DNA of 32,000 bases, taken from Polynucleobacter wuianus. GTDB lineage: Bacteria > Pseudomonadota > Gammaproteobacteria > Burkholderiales > Burkholderiaceae. Below, in pieces: positions 1-28,876 of this stretch. The DNA lies in assembly GCF_001659725.1 (NCBI RefSeq), contig NZ_CP015922.1, positions 1,541,498-1,573,497 on the forward strand, in the 5' to 3' direction. Below the pieces are notes generated by a model. That model had not been told where the DNA came from and did not search any database. It saw nothing but the letters and a program-made list of their open reading frames with translations. Position 1 is the first letter of the stretch. Every line of letters starts with the position of its first letter. The position numbers were made by a program, and so were the translations under genes.

Positions 1-1
1 G

Positions 2-850
2 GAGTATCTGCGTAGCCGAATGCAGGCGTCCATTGTTTACGACCGATTCCTGGGTGGCTACAAGTTTGAGAATTCCTCATCGATCGAGAGGATCGAGATG
101 CCTGGACTCTGGTTCTCCGAGAAGGAGGCTACGGCCTTAGTGCTAATGCAGCACTTACTCTCTTCGCTCGATCAAGGCGGCTTAATTGGACCCCATATTG
201 AACCTCTTACCGCAATTATTGATGGAATTCTGGGTCAGAGTGATGCCACAGCCAAAGAGCTGCGCAAACGCATCAAGGTCATTGGTATGGGTTCGCGCAA
301 GAACTCGATTGAGAACTTCTCTGAAATTGGTGCAGCCTTATTAAAGCGTAATCGCCTTCAGATTACATACTACTCCAAAAGTAAGGATGAGAATACGGTC
401 CGTGAAATCTCCCCGCAACGCTTAATCTATTACCGTGAGAACTGGTACCTCGATGCGAATTGCCATTTGCGCAATGATTTGCGGAGCTTTTCGGTAGATG
501 GTATTCAGAGTGCGGTACTGACCAACAAGAAAGCTCAAGAGGTTTCTGAAAAAGAATGTCAGGAGCACTTTGCGCAGAGCTATGGCATCTTCTCAGGTAA
601 GGCGACACAGAGAGCTAAGCTTCGCTTTACTCCAGAGCATGCAAGGTGGGTATCGGGCGAGCATTGGCATGGCCAACAAGTAGGCAACTTTGATAAAGAT
701 GGTTATTACAACCTGGAGTTTGATTACAACCAAGATCCTGAATTAGTCATGGATATCCTGAAACATGGATCTGGCGTTGAGGTGATTAGTCCGGCTAGTT
801 TAAAAAATAAGGTTAAGGCTGAACTTAAGAAGGCAATAGAATTATATTAA
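2..850 (+). CDS. WYL-domain transcriptional regulator (YafY/PafBC-like), 5'-truncated by the window edge
   Basis: The frame of ORF 20..850 stays open back to nt 2 (..EYLRSR-MQASIVYDRF..), which resembles the end of the N-terminal HTH of WYL regulators. WYL core PQRLIYYRENWYLDANCHLRNDLRSFSVDGI. The C-terminal ~100 aa are WCX-like (GEHWHGQQ..VEVISPASL). Confidence 0.85.
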   Translation, partial: EYLRSRMQASIVYDRFLGGYKFENSSSIERIEMPGLWFSEKEATALVLMQHLLSSLDQGGLIGPHIEPLTAIIDGILGQSDATAKELRKRIKVIGMGSRKNSIENFSEIGAALLKRNRLQITYYSKSKDENTVREISPQRLIYYRENWYLDANCHLRNDLRSFSVDGIQSAVLTNKKAQEVSEKECQEHFAQSYGIFSGKATQRAKLRFTPEHARWVSGEHWHGQQVGNFDKDGYYNLEFDYNQDPELVMDILKHGSGVEVISPASLKNKVKAELKKAIELY

Positions 851-895: not shown

Positions 896-1054
896 TTTTG
901 CTGGTGGGTAGAAGCCCTCAAAAAAAACAAAGCCCCGTGGTTAGGGGCTATTCTATCGGTCTTGGCAGAAATGAGAGATGGCAAACTCCATATGTCGCAT
1001 AACCAAGAGAATAGAGATACCAAAAAAGATATTTAAATTGGAATTTTGGGCAAC
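896..1054. repeat. Copy A of a diverged ~160-nt direct repeat; contains a minus-strand terminator-like hairpin (stem 931-936/944-949)
   Basis: ttttgctggtgggtagaagccct..aaagccccgtggttaggggct aligns by eye with 2417-2471 (ttttgatggtgggtagaggagccct..agagccccatacttaggggct). Colinear weaker matches follow: tatgtcgcataaccaagagaat vs tctatcgccaacccttccagaat, and atttaaattggaattttgggcaac vs aattaaatctgggggtatttttgggggcac. On the minus strand the hairpin AGCCCC-N7-GGGGCT is followed by TTTGTTTTTTTT. Confidence 0.6.
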
Positions 1055-1080
1055 AAAAACCCCGCCGTAGCGGGGTTTTT
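1055..1080. terminator. Bidirectional intrinsic terminator immediately 3' of the cassette
   Basis: aaaaa-CCCCGC-cgta-GCGGGG-ttttt: a 6-bp GC stem with a 4-nt loop, an A-run on one side and a T-run on the other. It lies 17 nt beyond the stop of the minus-strand gene 1097..1384. Confidence 0.8.
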
Positions 1081-1096
1081 GTGTTGATAGTAGTTT

Positions 1097-1384
1097 TTAG
1101 TGCCTGGTAGATGCAAACAGCAATCTGCTCTTAATTAAATCGTTGATAAATTTTGTGGAATCCACGATCTTCAAATGTTGCTGAATATTCTGGATTGAAG
1201 TTACCTCAAGCAGGCGTACAAAGGCTGAGTTTATAAATGCTGAAGGGGTTGCGGGGATCTCTTTAAATGAAACTACAACATCTTCTCCCGCAGCTACTTT
1301 TTCAGAAATAAGCTTAAAAATAACCTCTCCATCGGCATAACTAGATGCGGAAGGGACGAGGTCTTTAATGTGTATATTTACCAT
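1097..1384 (-). CDS. Small STAS-like protein resembling the DUF4325 family (putative kinase partner/antagonist)
   Basis: 95 aa. Pattern ..DGEVIFKLISEKVAAGEDVVVSFKEIPATPSAFINSAFVRLLE.. matches my memory of DUF4325/STAS-like proteins (a beta-strand-FxxV-..-SFxxxaF segment). Its ATG lies inside the last codons of the upstream kinase gene (caATGGTAAat, 7-nt overlap). Confidence 0.6.
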   Translation of the reverse strand: MVNIHIKDLVPSASSYADGEVIFKLISEKVAAGEDVVVSFKEIPATPSAFINSAFVRLLEVTSIQNIQQHLKIVDSTKFINDLIKSRLLFASTRH

Positions 1385-2298
1385 TGGAATTCCTCCTTTT
1401 CAAGGCTACTTTCAGTCATTTTCATTGTATCAGTGCGTAATAAAACCTGCACCATAGTGCCTGGATAATATCCCTTTGGAATGGATCGAGAGGTTATATT
1501 TGGGGCTTTTGGGCCCATGGTTGCAGATAAATAGCCCATTCCAGAGTGAATTAGCACTACACCATCATTCTTTTGGGCAACAAATTTGACAAGCATTGTA
1601 AGGCCCGCGCCGCGATTTCTTACGTTTGATTGAGTGGTAAACCCCTCCTCAACGGCCTGTTTTAGGGCATCCTTATCGGACATGCTTGGGTAGATAGTTC
1701 TTACGTTCTCAGGAATCCCATGCCCAAAATCAGCAATGGCAATGCTAATTTGATTTTTTCTTGGAAAGTGTTGGGCAAAAAAACATCCTATCTTTACCCC
1801 AGAGTGAAAGATGATGTTGTGAAAAATCTCTTCCAAATGAACCCTGATTAGATCAAGCGGATCTCCGCCTATATTCGCCCTTTCTCCAATCCATGGAATT
1901 AAGGTGTTGAGAAGATAAGACTGCTGCTTTTCCTCCGGAAGAATATGAAGTGGGATGGTAGTGTCTCTAACTTTACTGCCTTCAAAAATATTCTGTTTGA
2001 GGTAGTACTTGAAAAACCCAGCATCATCAAGAAACCTTAGGGCTCCACTACCATGCTTATGATTTTTAAAGTAAATATTCAGTCTTTGTAGCTTGAAATA
2101 CTCTATGAGATTGGAGAGAGTTACTATGCCCTCTGGTTCAATAAATTCAAGCGCAGAAAAGTCAAAATAGATCTTAGCGCCTTTTGCGTTTTTATTGCCG
2201 TCAATTAAATTTTCGATGAAATCGATCATCGTATCTTTATTGAAAGACTGTGGTAAAGCTATGTTTAGATCACCCTTACTTAATATTTTGAAAATCAT
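1378..2298 (-). CDS. STAS-like N-terminal domain fused to a GHKL/Bergerat-fold ATPase (RsbW/SpoIIAB-type serine kinase-like)
   Basis: 306 aa. The N-terminus KIYFDFSALEFIEPEGIVTLSNLIEY is STAS-like. C-terminal Bergerat boxes: N-box LEEIFHNIIFHSG, G1 IADFGHGIP, G2 NRGAGLTML. SD-like GAGG lies about 6 nt upstream of the ATG at 2298. Confidence 0.7.
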   Translation of the reverse strand: MIFKILSKGDLNIALPQSFNKDTMIDFIENLIDGNKNAKGAKIYFDFSALEFIEPEGIVTLSNLIEYFKLQRLNIYFKNHKHGSGALRFLDDAGFFKYYLKQNIFEGSKVRDTTIPLHILPEEKQQSYLLNTLIPWIGERANIGGDPLDLIRVHLEEIFHNIIFHSGVKIGCFFAQHFPRKNQISIAIADFGHGIPENVRTIYPSMSDKDALKQAVEEGFTTQSNVRNRGAGLTMLVKFVAQKNDGVVLIHSGMGYLSATMGPKAPNITSRSIPKGYYPGTMVQVLLRTDTMKMTESSLEKEEFQW

Positions 2299-2416
2299 TC
2301 GTACCTCATTAGATTTTTGTTAATTATTACATTGGCTGGGGCAAGATCTTTACTCAAGCTCTAGTATTTTTAACCGGCCCTTTAAAAAAGAGGGATCGCT
2401 GCAATTTCAGCTAATG

Positions 2417-2600
2417 TTTTGATGGTGGGTAGAGGAGCCCTAAAAACAAAGAGCCCCATACTTAGGGGCTCTGCTGCCGTATGTGGCGGAAGAGGTGTAC
2501 GTATGGTTCTTTTTCTATCGCCAACCCTTCCAGAATCTGAAGACAATTAAATCAAATTGTACGAATTAAATCTGGGGGTATTTTTGGGGGCACTCTTTGA
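2417..2600. repeat. Copy B of the diverged direct repeat; contains a minus-strand terminator-like hairpin (stem 2451-2457/2465-2471)
   Basis: See copy A. The hairpin stem sequence is conserved (GAGCCCC/GGGGCTC) while the loop differs (atactta vs gtggtta). The minus-strand reading gives the stem followed by TTTGTTTTT. Confidence 0.6.
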
Positions 2601-2650
2601 AATTCGTACCTTTTCGGTAATATGTAACCCACTGTTTTTGATCTAGAAAA

Positions 2651-2682
2651 TGGGGTTTAGTTCGATCTCCGCCGACCCACCA
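2651..2682 (+). other. tRNA/tmRNA 3'-end-like fragment (T-loop-like GTTCGAT .. CCGCCGACCC-A-CCA); not an intact RNA gene
   Basis: tggggtttaGTTCGATctccgccgacccACCA resembles the T-loop, 3' acceptor strand and CCA of a tRNA/tmRNA. No complementary 5' acceptor strand (GGGTCGG) and no 5' T-stem half occur in the preceding ~100 nt. Confidence 0.4.
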
Positions 2683-2693
2683 ATTAAAGCAAG

Positions 2694-2720
2694 CCCCTCT
2701 GAATTTTGGAGGGGTTTTGT
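2694..2720 (+). terminator. Intrinsic terminator following the tRNA-like fragment; may also serve the convergent methyltransferase gene
   Basis: CCCCTC(2694-2699)-tgaattttg-GAGGGG(2709-2714) followed by TTTTGTTT. It abuts the stop codon (2721-2723) of the minus-strand CDS. Confidence 0.65.
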
Positions 2721-3878
2721 TTATCTGCTAGCCAAGCGCCAAAGCGACGTGGTCTCTTTCGCTCTTGCAAGATGCAGCGCATCTGTTTTATCAAAAGCTT
2801 TTGGATGCTGCGGCTTGGTATCTAATCGAGCAATCACTTTCAGTCCTGCAGACTCAATCCAAGAGAGTAAATCCTCTCTAGTACGCAAACCTAAGTGCTC
2901 AGCTAAGTCCGACAAAATTAACCAGCCCTCACCCTCAGGCAACAAGTGTTCTTTTAAATTATTGAGAAAGCCTTTGAGCATCTGACTATCTGGGTCATAG
3001 ACAGCATGCTCTAAAGATGAGCTTGGTCTTGCCGGCAACCAAGGTGGGTTGCAGACAACAAGCGCAGCCCTGCCCTCCGGAAATAAATTGGCTTTCTGAA
3101 TCTGAATGTGAGACCCCAAGTTTAGTTTCTCAATATTGTCTTTTGCACAAGTAATCGCACGATCATCCTGATCAGTTCCAATAATCTTTTTGATTTCTCG
3201 CATCGCGAGCACTATAGATAGGACACCCGTACCAATGCCGATATCAAATGCTATAGAACTTTGTTTGAGCGCACCGGGAAGTGGCGCCTTCAGCACAAGC
3301 TCAATATATTCGCCACGGATAGGTGAGAACACGCCATAGTGAGGATGAATCCGAATCTCTTCGTCATCTCTTACCAAAATGGGCACACCCTTCTTACGCC
3401 ATTCATGAGCACTGATGACACCAAGTAATTCACGTAACGAGATGACATAGGATTCACTTTTTTTCCCATATGCCTCAACACAGGCCTGAGCAACATCTGG
3501 AGCGCGTCTTAGGGAAATAGTGTGATCTGCATTTACTTGGATCAGTAGCATCCCTAAAATGCGGGCGCGCTGTGACTGAGATAAACGATGCAAATTAAAA
3601 GTGTCTAAAGGAGTTTTTGTTTTCTCTTTTGCAACTCTATCGGCTCTAGTTGATTTCTTAGAAGGCTTATCCACTCTCCTCACCAATGCTTGCAGCAATT
3701 GGCGAGCGTTTTGAAAGTCACCACGATAAAGAATAGCCGCACCCTCACATGCCAAACGGTAAGCGATATCAGCTGTTAGGGTATCGTCACCAATCTGAAT
3801 TTTTTTATGCGGCGCAATTCCGTTCTCGGAATGCCATTTTGCGGTACAAGTTTGCCCGCCCTCATCCCATTCGATCAT
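2721..3878 (-). CDS. Class I SAM-dependent methyltransferase (NPPW motif) with an uncharacterised ~170-aa N-terminal region
   Basis: Motif I FDIGIGTGVLSIVLA and motif IV VVCNPPWLP, as in amino-group (N6-A/N-Gln/m2G type) methyltransferases. The start codon overlaps the pirin stop (TGATG). Confidence 0.8.
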   Translation of the reverse strand: MIEWDEGGQTCTAKWHSENGIAPHKKIQIGDDTLTADIAYRLACEGAAILYRGDFQNARQLLQALVRRVDKPSKKSTRADRVAKEKTKTPLDTFNLHRLSQSQRARILGMLLIQVNADHTISLRRAPDVAQACVEAYGKKSESYVISLRELLGVISAHEWRKKGVPILVRDDEEIRIHPHYGVFSPIRGEYIELVLKAPLPGALKQSSIAFDIGIGTGVLSIVLAMREIKKIIGTDQDDRAITCAKDNIEKLNLGSHIQIQKANLFPEGRAALVVCNPPWLPARPSSSLEHAVYDPDSQMLKGFLNNLKEHLLPEGEGWLILSDLAEHLGLRTREDLLSWIESAGLKVIARLDTKPQHPKAFDKTDALHLARAKETTSLWRLASR

Positions 3879-27247: not shown

Positions 27248-28876
27248 ATGTTTTTTCATCCAAAAATCCTCGATTCTTTTCAGGGCTACAACCGCACCCT
27301 ATTTACCAAAGATGTTTTAGCGGGACTTACTGTTGGTGTCGTAGCGCTCCCATTGGCTATGGCTTTTGCAATTGCCAGCGGTCTAAAACCTGAAGCTGGA
27401 ATCTTCACCGCCATTATTGCTGGTGGATTAATTTCTTTGCTAGGCGGTAGTCGCGTTCAAATCGGGGGTCCGGCTGGTGCCTTCATTGTGATCGTTTACG
27501 GTATTGTTGATCGCTATGGAGTACCCAACCTATTACTAGCAACCGTAATGTCTGGCGTTTTTCTCCTGATCATGGGCTCGTTTCGACTTGGGACACTAGT
27601 ACGATTCATTCCTATTGCAGTAATCATTGGCTTTACCAACGGTATTGCTTGTTTGATTGCGCTATCGCAAGTTAAGGAATTCTTTGGTTTGACGATTGAA
27701 AAAATGCCAGCGCAATTTTTTCAATCGATACATGCTCTTTATAGCGCAGCAGATACCATCAACCCTGCTGCATTCAGCTTAGCCTGCGGCAGCCTAGCCA
27801 TCATTATTGGCTGGAGAATGATGCGCAAGAATTTAGGTTGGCTGAGCCATCTTCCAGGCACTGTTATAGCCATGGTAATGGCAACCGTCATTACTGCCTT
27901 GCTGGACTTACCAGTAGATACGATTGGCAGCCGTTTTGGTGGGATTCCCTCAAGCCTCCCACAGTTTGAATGGATCCCCATCAGTTGGGATACCGCCCAA
28001 TTTATGGTGGTGCCAGCCCTCACTTTGGCCCTCCTAGGCGCAATTGAATCATTACTTTGCGCCCGTATCGCCGATGGCTTGATCCATGATCGCCATGACT
28101 CTAACCAAGAACTGATGGCACAAGGTATTGCCAACTTAGTGACGCCATTTTTTGGCGGTATGCCAGCAACCGGGACGATTGCACGCACTGTTACTAATAT
28201 CGAAAGTGGTGGTAGATCACCAATCGCTGGGATTGTGCATGCTCTCACTCTATTGATTGTGGTTTTATTTGCAGCCCCACTAGCAAAAGATATTCCCTTG
28301 GCGAGTCTAGCTGCTATCTTGATGTATGTCGCTTGGAATATGGGTGAGTGGAAAAAGTTTATTGACTTGAAGCAGTTTCGCCTGCCCTATCAACTCACTA
28401 TCATTAGCGTGTTTTTGCTCACTGTTATTTTGGATCTCACGGTTGCAGTGCAAGTAGGTCTGCTACTTGCTTTCATCACTTTCATTTATCGCATCTCCAG
28501 CTTATCCCGTTGTGAGCTGGCAGATACCGAGCACTTCCCGCAGTTAAAAAACCAACAAGGTCGGATTGATGCCTACCGAATTTATGGCGCCATCTTTTTT
28601 GGTGCCGTAAAGCTTCTTGAAAAGATTGAAGAGAAGTTACCTTCTCAGGTTTTATTAATTGATCTCAAGAACGTGATTTACGTAGATACCTCAGGAATGG
28701 AAACCATTATCGAGTTGGCTCATCTATGCAAAATCCGCAACATCAAGCTCTGTATTTGCGGTCTAGATCATCAACCTTATGAGATGGCGCAGCGCAGTGG
28801 CTTTTTACAAACCTTGCCACAAGACTGCCTCTACCCCGACCTACTTTCTGGAATTGCTGCAGCAACTGGGCACTAA
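27248..28876 (+). CDS. SulP-family anion transporter with a C-terminal STAS domain
   Basis: 542 aa. SulP N-terminal pattern DVLAGLTVGVVALPLAMAFAIASG and a C-terminal STAS domain (VLLIDLKNVIYVDTSGMETI). Confidence 0.9.
   Translation: MFFHPKILDSFQGYNRTLFTKDVLAGLTVGVVALPLAMAFAIASGLKPEAGIFTAIIAGGLISLLGGSRVQIGGPAGAFIVIVYGIVDRYGVPNLLLATVMSGVFLLIMGSFRLGTLVRFIPIAVIIGFTNGIACLIALSQVKEFFGLTIEKMPAQFFQSIHALYSAADTINPAAFSLACGSLAIIIGWRMMRKNLGWLSHLPGTVIAMVMATVITALLDLPVDTIGSRFGGIPSSLPQFEWIPISWDTAQFMVVPALTLALLGAIESLLCARIADGLIHDRHDSNQELMAQGIANLVTPFFGGMPATGTIARTVTNIESGGRSPIAGIVHALTLLIVVLFAAPLAKDIPLASLAAILMYVAWNMGEWKKFIDLKQFRLPYQLTIISVFLLTVILDLTVAVQVGLLLAFITFIYRISSLSRCELADTEHFPQLKNQQGRIDAYRIYGAIFFGAVKLLEKIEEKLPSQVLLIDLKNVIYVDTSGMETIIELAHLCKIRNIKLCICGLDHQPYEMAQRSGFLQTLPQDCLYPDLLSGIAAATGH

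Follow-up and report, generated by a model that had tools for sequence, protein, structure and literature searches.

The 32,000-nucleotide (nt) stretch of Polynucleobacter wuianus DNA analyzed here (contig NZ_CP015922.1, positions 1,541,498 to 1,573,497; "the window" refers to this whole stretch) carries on its minus strand two overlapping genes, which we call K and S. K (2298..1378) is an open reading frame (ORF) predicted to encode a 306-amino-acid (aa) STAS plus GHKL (SpoIIAB-like) serine/threonine kinase, homologous to VapK and identical to the product of locus tag A8O14_07945, and S (1384..1097) encodes a 95-aa DUF4325 STAS-like protein, a homologue of VapS without the C-terminal inhibitory helix of VapS. 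Our analysis identifies the pair as a two-gene variant, with widespread members, of the CapK/VapK-type kinase-STAS switch.

Organization of the K-S gene pair

The two genes share the sequence ATGGTAA (1378..1384, minus strand), in which the start codon of S is formed from the last codon and the stop codon of K, Trp306 and the stop overlapping Met1 and Val2 of S, an arrangement expected to couple their translation. Homologous loci were collected by scanning one genome per species, with an 11-sequence alignment as the seed, which yielded 49 loci, 40 of them intact loci of close homologues. The same 7-nt overlap (ATGGTRR) occurs in 28/40 of the latter and a 10-nt overlap in 8/40; because the overlap is kept in most homologous loci, it is a conserved feature rather than the product of chance. 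Beginning 15 nt beyond the stop codon of S, a terminator-like hairpin (1053..1082, both strands) consisting of a perfect 13-nt inverted repeat with flanking T and A runs closes the K-S unit and should act bidirectionally. Upstream, a weak sigma-70-like promoter match (2294..2323, minus strand) lies just ahead of K and is not above chance: the scan of this region returned 3 promoter-like sites against 4.7 expected, and we claim neither a promoter nor an SOS box here. The G+C content over positions 1001-3000 is 0.40-0.41, compared with about 0.45-0.47 elsewhere in the window, a real but modest AT-richness that was not used as evidence. Within 10 kb on either side of the pair, neither a sigma factor nor a PP2C phosphatase nor any obvious effector was called.

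Domains, motifs and predicted folds of K and S

When searched against Pfam, K stayed below threshold for both HATPase_c (PF02518; E=0.011, 16.6 bits, cut-off 26.4) and HATPase_c_2 (PF13581; 12.6 bits, gathering threshold 27.4). We nevertheless assign its C-terminal part to the GHKL group for three reasons: (i) the ATP-binding boxes of the Bergerat fold are invariant in 91 homologues; (ii) the AlphaFold2 model of K is confident, with a predicted local distance difference test (pLDDT) score of 91.5 and a predicted template modeling (TM) score of 0.89; and (iii) the best structural match of the C-terminal domain is SpoIIAB (TM score 0.72-0.76, root mean square deviation 3.4-4.1 Å). The boxes comprise the N-box E157...N161...H165 (1804..1830, minus strand; invariant in 91/91), the G1 box D190-F-G-H-G-I-P196 (1711..1731, minus strand), with D190, G192, G194, I195 and P196 invariant, and the G2 box or ATP lid N228-R-G-A-G232 (1603..1617, minus strand), with N228, G230 and G232 invariant. 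The GHKL region (residues 146-258, window 1525-1863) also matches positions 135-246 of the 1,750-position PADLOC model of DrmA, a DISARM component (E=7e-11), and some DrmA proteins may carry a K-like module at their N-terminus.

The N-terminal part of K (approximately aa 1-120; 1939..2298, minus strand) forms an alpha/beta domain in the model. Its secondary structure there, precomputed PF01740 matches in several homologues, weak matches of the K profile to prestin STAS, RsbS and SpoIIAA (E 0.007-0.2) and the homology to VapK together point to a STAS domain, on weaker evidence than that for the GHKL domain. No helix-turn-helix (HTH) family was matched in K, which begins directly with the STAS-like domain. 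Position 52 is aromatic (F, W or Y) in 85/91 homologues; F52 of K (codon 2143-2145, minus strand) aligns with F54 of VapK, a residue proposed to stack on single-stranded DNA (ssDNA) (PMC13373217).

At its other end K carries an acidic tail, E302-x-F304-x-W306-COOH (1381..1395, minus strand), which is specific to this clade. W306 is present in 91/91 homologues, E302 in 88/91 and F304 in 86/91, while 80/91 proteins end exactly on the tryptophan, and the last 14 aa have a mean net charge of -4.1 across the 91 homologues. The E-x-F-x-W tail is found in 115/131 full-length family representatives and is absent from VapK. It is predicted to be disordered (pLDDT <50 for residues 303-306) and could serve either as an autoinhibitory DNA mimic or as a docking tail.

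S is a member of the Pfam family DUF4325 (PF14213; E=8.9e-9, 35.4 bits against a gathering threshold of 23), and its AlphaFold2 model has a pLDDT of 93.6. Ser48 (codon 1241..1243, minus strand), the predicted phospho-acceptor, aligns with S48 of VapS and stands at the N-terminus of helix 48-54; serine or threonine occupies this position in every row of a 42-sequence S alignment. The sequences of this family were gathered from the ORFs downstream of K in homologous loci, a word-indexed search with S having given only 5 proteins. S is a single 95-aa domain in which no winged HTH (wHTH) or other DNA-binding domain was found. Both proteins fall into PHROG families of unknown function, K into phrog_3364 (E=1e-45) and S into phrog_9989 (E=8e-20). 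The GHKL and STAS homology that the first-pass annotation had read from the letters is thus upheld, in the GHKL part of K by motifs and fold instead of Pfam scores.

Homology to the VapKSC and CapK/CapS systems

CapK/CapS and VapKSC were described by Chambers et al., EMBO J 2026 (PMC13373217). In the general scheme, a kinase activated by ssDNA phosphorylates a serine of its STAS partner, thereby freeing either a PIN toxin or a repressor (PMC13373217). VapK, itself a STAS-GHKL protein, is proposed to phosphorylate VapS on Ser48, which frees the PIN toxin VapC, and the vapKSC operon guards Escherichia coli against one phage; CapS leaves the promoter of an immune operon located downstream (PMC13373217). 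For comparison, the VapK, VapS and VapC sequences were rebuilt from the deposited models of that study.

Over 232 aa, K and VapK share 31% identity (pairwise E=5e-21), and VapK reaches 106 bits with the profile of the K family (E=1e-25 at the scale of the library). Among solved structures, the one that S matches best in sequence is Escherichia VapS (PDB 9z7o; pairwise E=4e-6), and both proteins match PF14213 over residues 18-77 of each. N161 of K aligns with N160 of VapK in the N-box and would correspond, by motif position, to N218 of CapK, the tested catalytic asparagine (PMC13373217). These sequence comparisons show K and S to be homologous to VapK and VapS; CapK and CapS are more distant homologues. 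The statement of the first-pass annotation that DUF4325 is uncharacterized is accordingly out of date, as the family now has a characterized member in VapS.

The third component of vapKSC has no counterpart here. VapC gave no tblastn match at E<=1 in the window or in the 49 genome loci and no blastp match at E<=1e-3 among the ORFs of nine viral loci (see below), and PIN is likewise missing from the 25 Pfam families most often seen in the neighboring genes. In PADLOC-DB v2.0.0, S has no match and K matches only the DrmA model, through its GHKL region, so that no system is matched by both proteins. The datasets of Chambers et al. contain only three-gene vapKSC and capKS loci; Polynucleobacter and Thiomonas, the only K-S-bearing genera that we searched for by name, are absent from them. 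The first-pass annotation had recognized no named defense system in the pair, and this holds for the pair as such, which does, however, have described homologues in VapK/VapS. As far as could be checked, the bare two-gene form is undescribed.

Distribution and neighborhoods of the K-S family

With one representative taken per 50%-identity cluster, an exhaustive profile search retrieved 332 at E<=1e-30 and 3,216 at E<=1e-10. The hosts in the genome scan belong to Betaproteobacteria, Gammaproteobacteria, Alphaproteobacteria, Desulfobacterota, Firmicutes, Bacteroidota and Leptospira. The nearest relative outside P. wuianus is only 54% identical. S lies directly downstream of K in 40/40 intact genome loci and in 9/9 viral loci, and the pairwise identities of the K and S proteins are correlated (r=0.68, against a permutation maximum of 0.24).

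The neighbors of the pair are heterogeneous: no third gene recurs in the genomes of the 40 species or in the nine viral contigs, and no other family is present in >7/49 loci. The gene after S lies on the opposite strand in many loci, and no downstream family recurs. Across 41 loci, in each of which two genes of >=90 aa were taken from either flank, no sigma factor or PP2C phosphatase was found among the recurrent or the 25 most frequent neighbor families. The JGI annotation labels homologues as anti-sigma regulatory factor and anti-anti-sigma factor. The flanking genes form two groups: (i) housekeeping genes, such as those for tRNA synthetases, BirA, RecA, Lon and GroEL, and (ii) markers of mobile elements, such as integrases, prophage lysins, YolD/ImpB, HigB, AbiEii and restriction subunits. 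The co-occurrence with WYL regulators that the first-pass annotation had suggested looking for was not borne out, WYL genes not recurring beside homologous pairs.

Phages are among the carriers. Nine viral contigs in IMG/VR contain the pair, and in six of them (6/9) an integrase lies no more than 3 genes away. A lambdoid prophage has the pair directly after its cI-like S24 repressor, opposite cro; the Burkholderia phage vB_E188 has it between the integrase and the BrnTA/portal block, and Streptococcus prophages have it after the lysin. Plasmids are a different matter: only 2 of 72,556 plasmid records contain the pair, both as weak matches, a rarity that rules out a plasmid-maintenance module as a rule.

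A few loci deviate from the common plan. In Paenibacillus ferrarius (L023:8879-9712) a single K is followed by two tandem S genes of 101 and 109 aa. In Brevibacillus parabrevis (L039:7995-8870) and at one other locus (L015:8001-8922), K is frameshifted and S is intact. In Candidatus Ozemobacteraceae (OZ223236.1; L036:8828-11011), the gene downstream of K, which shares the same 7-nt overlap with it, encodes a 727-aa fusion protein made up, in this order, of an S-type DUF4325 domain, HATPase_c_3, a coiled coil and a NucS_C-like nuclease. Unlike in the bare pair, the S domain is here fused to a GHKL-ATPase/nuclease, and as the fusion matches the PADLOC models of type II restriction enzymes (REase_II), the effector is supplied in cis at this locus. 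Judging from its domains, it appears to be a kinase-gated, restriction-like effector, and this natural fusion supports a role for S as a phospho-switch for effectors.

Genomic context in Polynucleobacter

The K-S pair is located at the edge of a larger defense island. The right-hand boundary of the island lies at position ~2682, beside a terminator-like hairpin at 2691-2717 (together 2682..2717), after a core methyltransferase gene. Leftwards of 2682, the sequence is 99.2-99.9% identical to that of a second Polynucleobacter lineage for at least 11.3 kb (L051:9617-20921), a lower bound on the length of the island, whose far end is beyond the region read; the core flanks of the two lineages share only 66-73% nucleotide identity. 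It follows from this difference that the island, K-S included, moved recently between lineages. In both it is inserted into the same site, downstream of the core gene for an MTS/PrmA-type methyltransferase (385 aa, NPPW motif; 2721-3878). This gene lies immediately outside the island, and its presence in both lineages at 66% nucleotide identity assigns it to the core genome instead of the island. Right of 2682 only ordinary core metabolism is encoded. No tRNA or Rfam family was detected in the window, and hence no tRNA-linked integration site explains the island edge.

The context to the left of the window was read from contigs carrying an identical K, a protein found unchanged on 12 contigs from several metagenome assemblies and a genome assembly. 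Leftwards from S, the island contains a WYL/WCX regulator, GmrSD, a restriction-modification (RM) methyltransferase with a specificity subunit, NT5C and DUF1376; in PADLOC, the RM methyltransferase is matched best by a type II methyltransferase model and less well by type I and type IIG models. The 3' part of the WYL/WCX gene (1..850, plus strand; full gene 322 aa) is cut by the edge of the window and matches Pfam WYL and WCX as well as PADLOC WYL models. As this gene is convergent with K-S, divergent from the GmrSD type IV restriction gene (the two at L051:11449-15135) and not a recurrent neighbor of the pair, we rejected a functional link between WYL and K-S; it is more probably a BrxR/CapW-like regulator of GmrSD, for which a divergent orientation would be expected, than a partner of K-S. 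The first-pass annotation was right about the island setting, and the defense or stress role that it proposed is plausible. Its other observations were upheld by our data, namely the positions of both ORFs, the self-contained cassette of a STAS-GHKL kinase and a DUF4325 STAS protein, translational coupling, a terminator of its own, AT-richness, the island boundary and the lack of a nearby sigma factor, phosphatase or effector.

Two diverged direct-repeat copies, A (896..970, plus strand) and B (2417..2491, plus strand), bracket the cassette, and each holds a minus-strand terminator-like hairpin (949..931 and 2472..2450, respectively). They are 72% identical without gaps and about 85% identical over 54 nt with gaps, the element being 55-75 nt long, and no further copy was found in the ~41 kb examined. 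Their position exactly around K-S suggests, but does not prove, that the pair entered the island as a cassette of its own; the repeats may be the scar of such an insertion or else a terminator module that was duplicated. A SulP sulfate transporter (27248-28876; PF00916 and PF01740) encoded in the core part of the window has a canonical STAS domain at its C-terminus and is unrelated to K-S.

Discussion

The intact GHKL boxes of K, the conserved Ser48 of S, the obligate coupling of the two genes and their occurrence in settings of genetic conflict are the basis on which we judge K-S to be, in reasonable though far from complete likelihood, a switch of the CapK/VapK-CapS/VapS kind, formed by a kinase and its substrate, that is autonomous and moves horizontally. 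Taken as a whole, the analysis suggests that the pair would most likely operate as a phospho-switch that responds to DNA damage or phage and whose output is either intrinsic or exerted in trans; an anti-phage role is plausible.

By analogy with CapK and VapK, such a switch might work as follows: (i) K would be inactive until ssDNA, arising from DNA damage or phage replication, binds between the STAS and kinase domains, with F52 stacking on it; (ii) active K would phosphorylate S on Ser48, so that the complex formed by unphosphorylated S falls apart; (iii) before this, following the classical logic of partner switching, unphosphorylated S would occupy K and keep it harmless; (iv) after phosphorylated S has left, free K, possibly by means of its E-x-F-x-W tail, would bind or phosphorylate a conserved target; and (v) engagement of this target would arrest growth or phage development. 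Since the pair lacks an effector gene in cis and would have to function across phyla, its probable target is either K itself or some conserved protein of the cell or of the phage. Confidence in the output of the bare pair is low, and the action of K on a conserved target is a conjecture. Taken to its end, this line of thought makes the pair a complete two-gene abortive-infection or toxin-antitoxin-like system, triggered by ssDNA, in which the kinase would also be the effector, S a stoichiometric pseudo-substrate antitoxin, and the tail of K the means of capturing or phosphorylating a universally conserved protein of host or phage; we put this forward tentatively, as a possibility that we hold to be doubtful.

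Several points weigh against the switch as drawn above. The activation of VapK by ssDNA is based on an AlphaFold 3 model and one mutant (PMC13373217), and its transfer to K would be an extrapolation from a VapK that is 31% identical or from a CapK more distant still. The roles given to K and S in this clade are predictions from homology, and the K tail, modeled as disordered, has a conjectural binding partner. The model of S found no significant match in the PDB by Foldseek among entries released by 8 April 2026, the best STAS match being RsbV (TM score 0.54, E=1.2); the CapS and VapS structures were not among the fold matches, probably because they are later than the library date. The housekeeping neighbors at many loci mean that the association with defense islands is not universal. 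Finally, the two loci in which K is frameshifted and S is intact fit a costly or toxic K only weakly, as a faint hint, and an assembly error is possible in each.

Four other explanations were weighed. The one that survives best, and that we still regard as unlikely, is that the pair is a DNA-damage sensor in the service of prophages, tuning induction, the lysis-lysogeny decision or superinfection immunity through a phage protein. The slot behind the cI-like repressor and opposite cro, the proximity to integrases in most of the viral contigs and in the Burkholderia phage, and the response of its relatives to DNA damage would all suit such a role. The same slots are, however, classical for prophage-borne defense cargo; moreover, in Polynucleobacter and at several other loci the pair resides in a non-prophage island or among housekeeping genes, and a phage-specific target would not persist across phages as different as these.

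A transcriptional controller of the CapKS type, acting on an adjacent operon such as the neighboring restriction genes or the methyltransferase, is a good deal less probable. It draws on the finding that CapK/CapS relatives control adjacent immune operons, with 20% of them adjoining RM systems (PMC13373217), and on the GmrSD and RM genes next to the pair. We rejected it because K has no N-terminal HTH and the 95-aa S no wHTH or DNA-binding domain, because the pair ends in its own terminator with the next gene convergent, and because no downstream gene recurs, the gene after S often being on the opposite strand; GmrSD, in addition, is already provided with a divergent WYL regulator of its own.

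About as unpromising, and in our estimate marginally less probable still, is an ordinary partner switch of the Rsb/SpoIIA type that controls a distant sigma factor as part of core stress signaling. The kinase domain is structurally nearest to SpoIIAB, the serine of S is at a SpoIIAA-like position, and the JGI labels point the same way. This classical module was rejected on four counts: (i) a sigma factor or PP2C phosphatase is missing both within 10 kb of the pair and from the recurrent neighbors of the 41 loci; (ii) the distribution is scattered, with patchy spread over Proteobacteria, Firmicutes, Bacteroidota, Leptospira and phages and only 54% identity to the closest relative beyond the species; (iii) the island is mobile, being ~99% identical between lineages with 66-73% identical core flanks; and (iv) the STAS domain of K is an addition absent from RsbW and SpoIIAB. 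The weakest explanation, a vapKSC locus decayed into a non-functional remnant after the loss of VapC, can appeal to the homology of K and S to VapK and VapS in the same order with the third gene missing, but it is very improbable and was rejected in view of the intact two-gene form in ~40 species and nine viral contigs across phyla, the conserved overlap, the clade's own traits (the tail of K and a shorter S), the 332 representatives and separate PHROG families for the two proteins, and the identity of K on the 12 contigs read that carry it.

If the preferred reading of K-S as a mobile kinase-substrate switch is right, its interest lies in what CapK/CapS and VapKSC have revealed, namely that a GHKL kinase and its STAS substrate together make up a sensor of DNA damage that is portable and can be connected to various outputs. 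The K-S clade would be a sizeable, phage-borne branch of that sensor, with no visible output and one natural fusion of S to a restriction-like nuclease. Finding the target of the pair could then reveal a minimal two-gene immune or stress system with the kinase as effector, which would amount to a sigma-free partner switch repurposed for immunity, or alternatively a sensor, carried by prophages and islands, that connects in trans to the machinery of the host. Small and self-contained, the pair has cultivable carriers, which include the Burkholderia phage vB_E188, Streptococcus agalactiae prophages, and Bacillus and Paenibacillus species.

Comparison with known systems

With SpoIIAB-SpoIIAA and RsbW-RsbV, K-S has in common the kinase fold, intact ATP-binding boxes and a small STAS-like substrate that has a serine where helix 2 begins. 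It differs from them in having neither a cognate sigma factor nor a PP2C phosphatase, in the additional STAS domain of K, and in being mobile and carried by phages instead of belonging to a core operon.

CapK/CapS (PDB 9Z71-9Z73) follows the same logic, a GHKL kinase with an internal STAS domain phosphorylating a conserved serine of a STAS partner encoded directly downstream. In contrast to K and S, CapK has an N-terminal HTH and CapS a C-terminal wHTH that makes it a DNA-binding repressor; CapS is not recognized by PF14213, and a CapK fragment had no match to the K profile. Nor is the pair placed directly upstream of an immune operon in the same orientation: here a terminator and a convergent WYL gene follow it, and the downstream genes vary between loci.

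VapKSC is the closest of the three, and yet it is distinct from K-S in several respects: (i) S stops at residue 95 and thus lacks residues 94-116 of VapS, the helix that inhibits VapC; (ii) K has the acidic E-x-F-x-W tail that VapK does not have; (iii) VapK reaches only 106 bits against the clade profile, whereas each of the 150 best family representatives scores at least 243 bits; and (iv) in Polynucleobacter a terminator and a convergent gene come directly after S, in place of a third gene. Against these differences stand a STAS-GHKL kinase without an HTH and with an aromatic residue at the position of VapK F54, a DUF4325 STAS protein with a predicted Ser48 phospho-acceptor, the gene order from kinase to substrate, and the frequent presence of other defense genes nearby, all of which K-S and VapKSC share.

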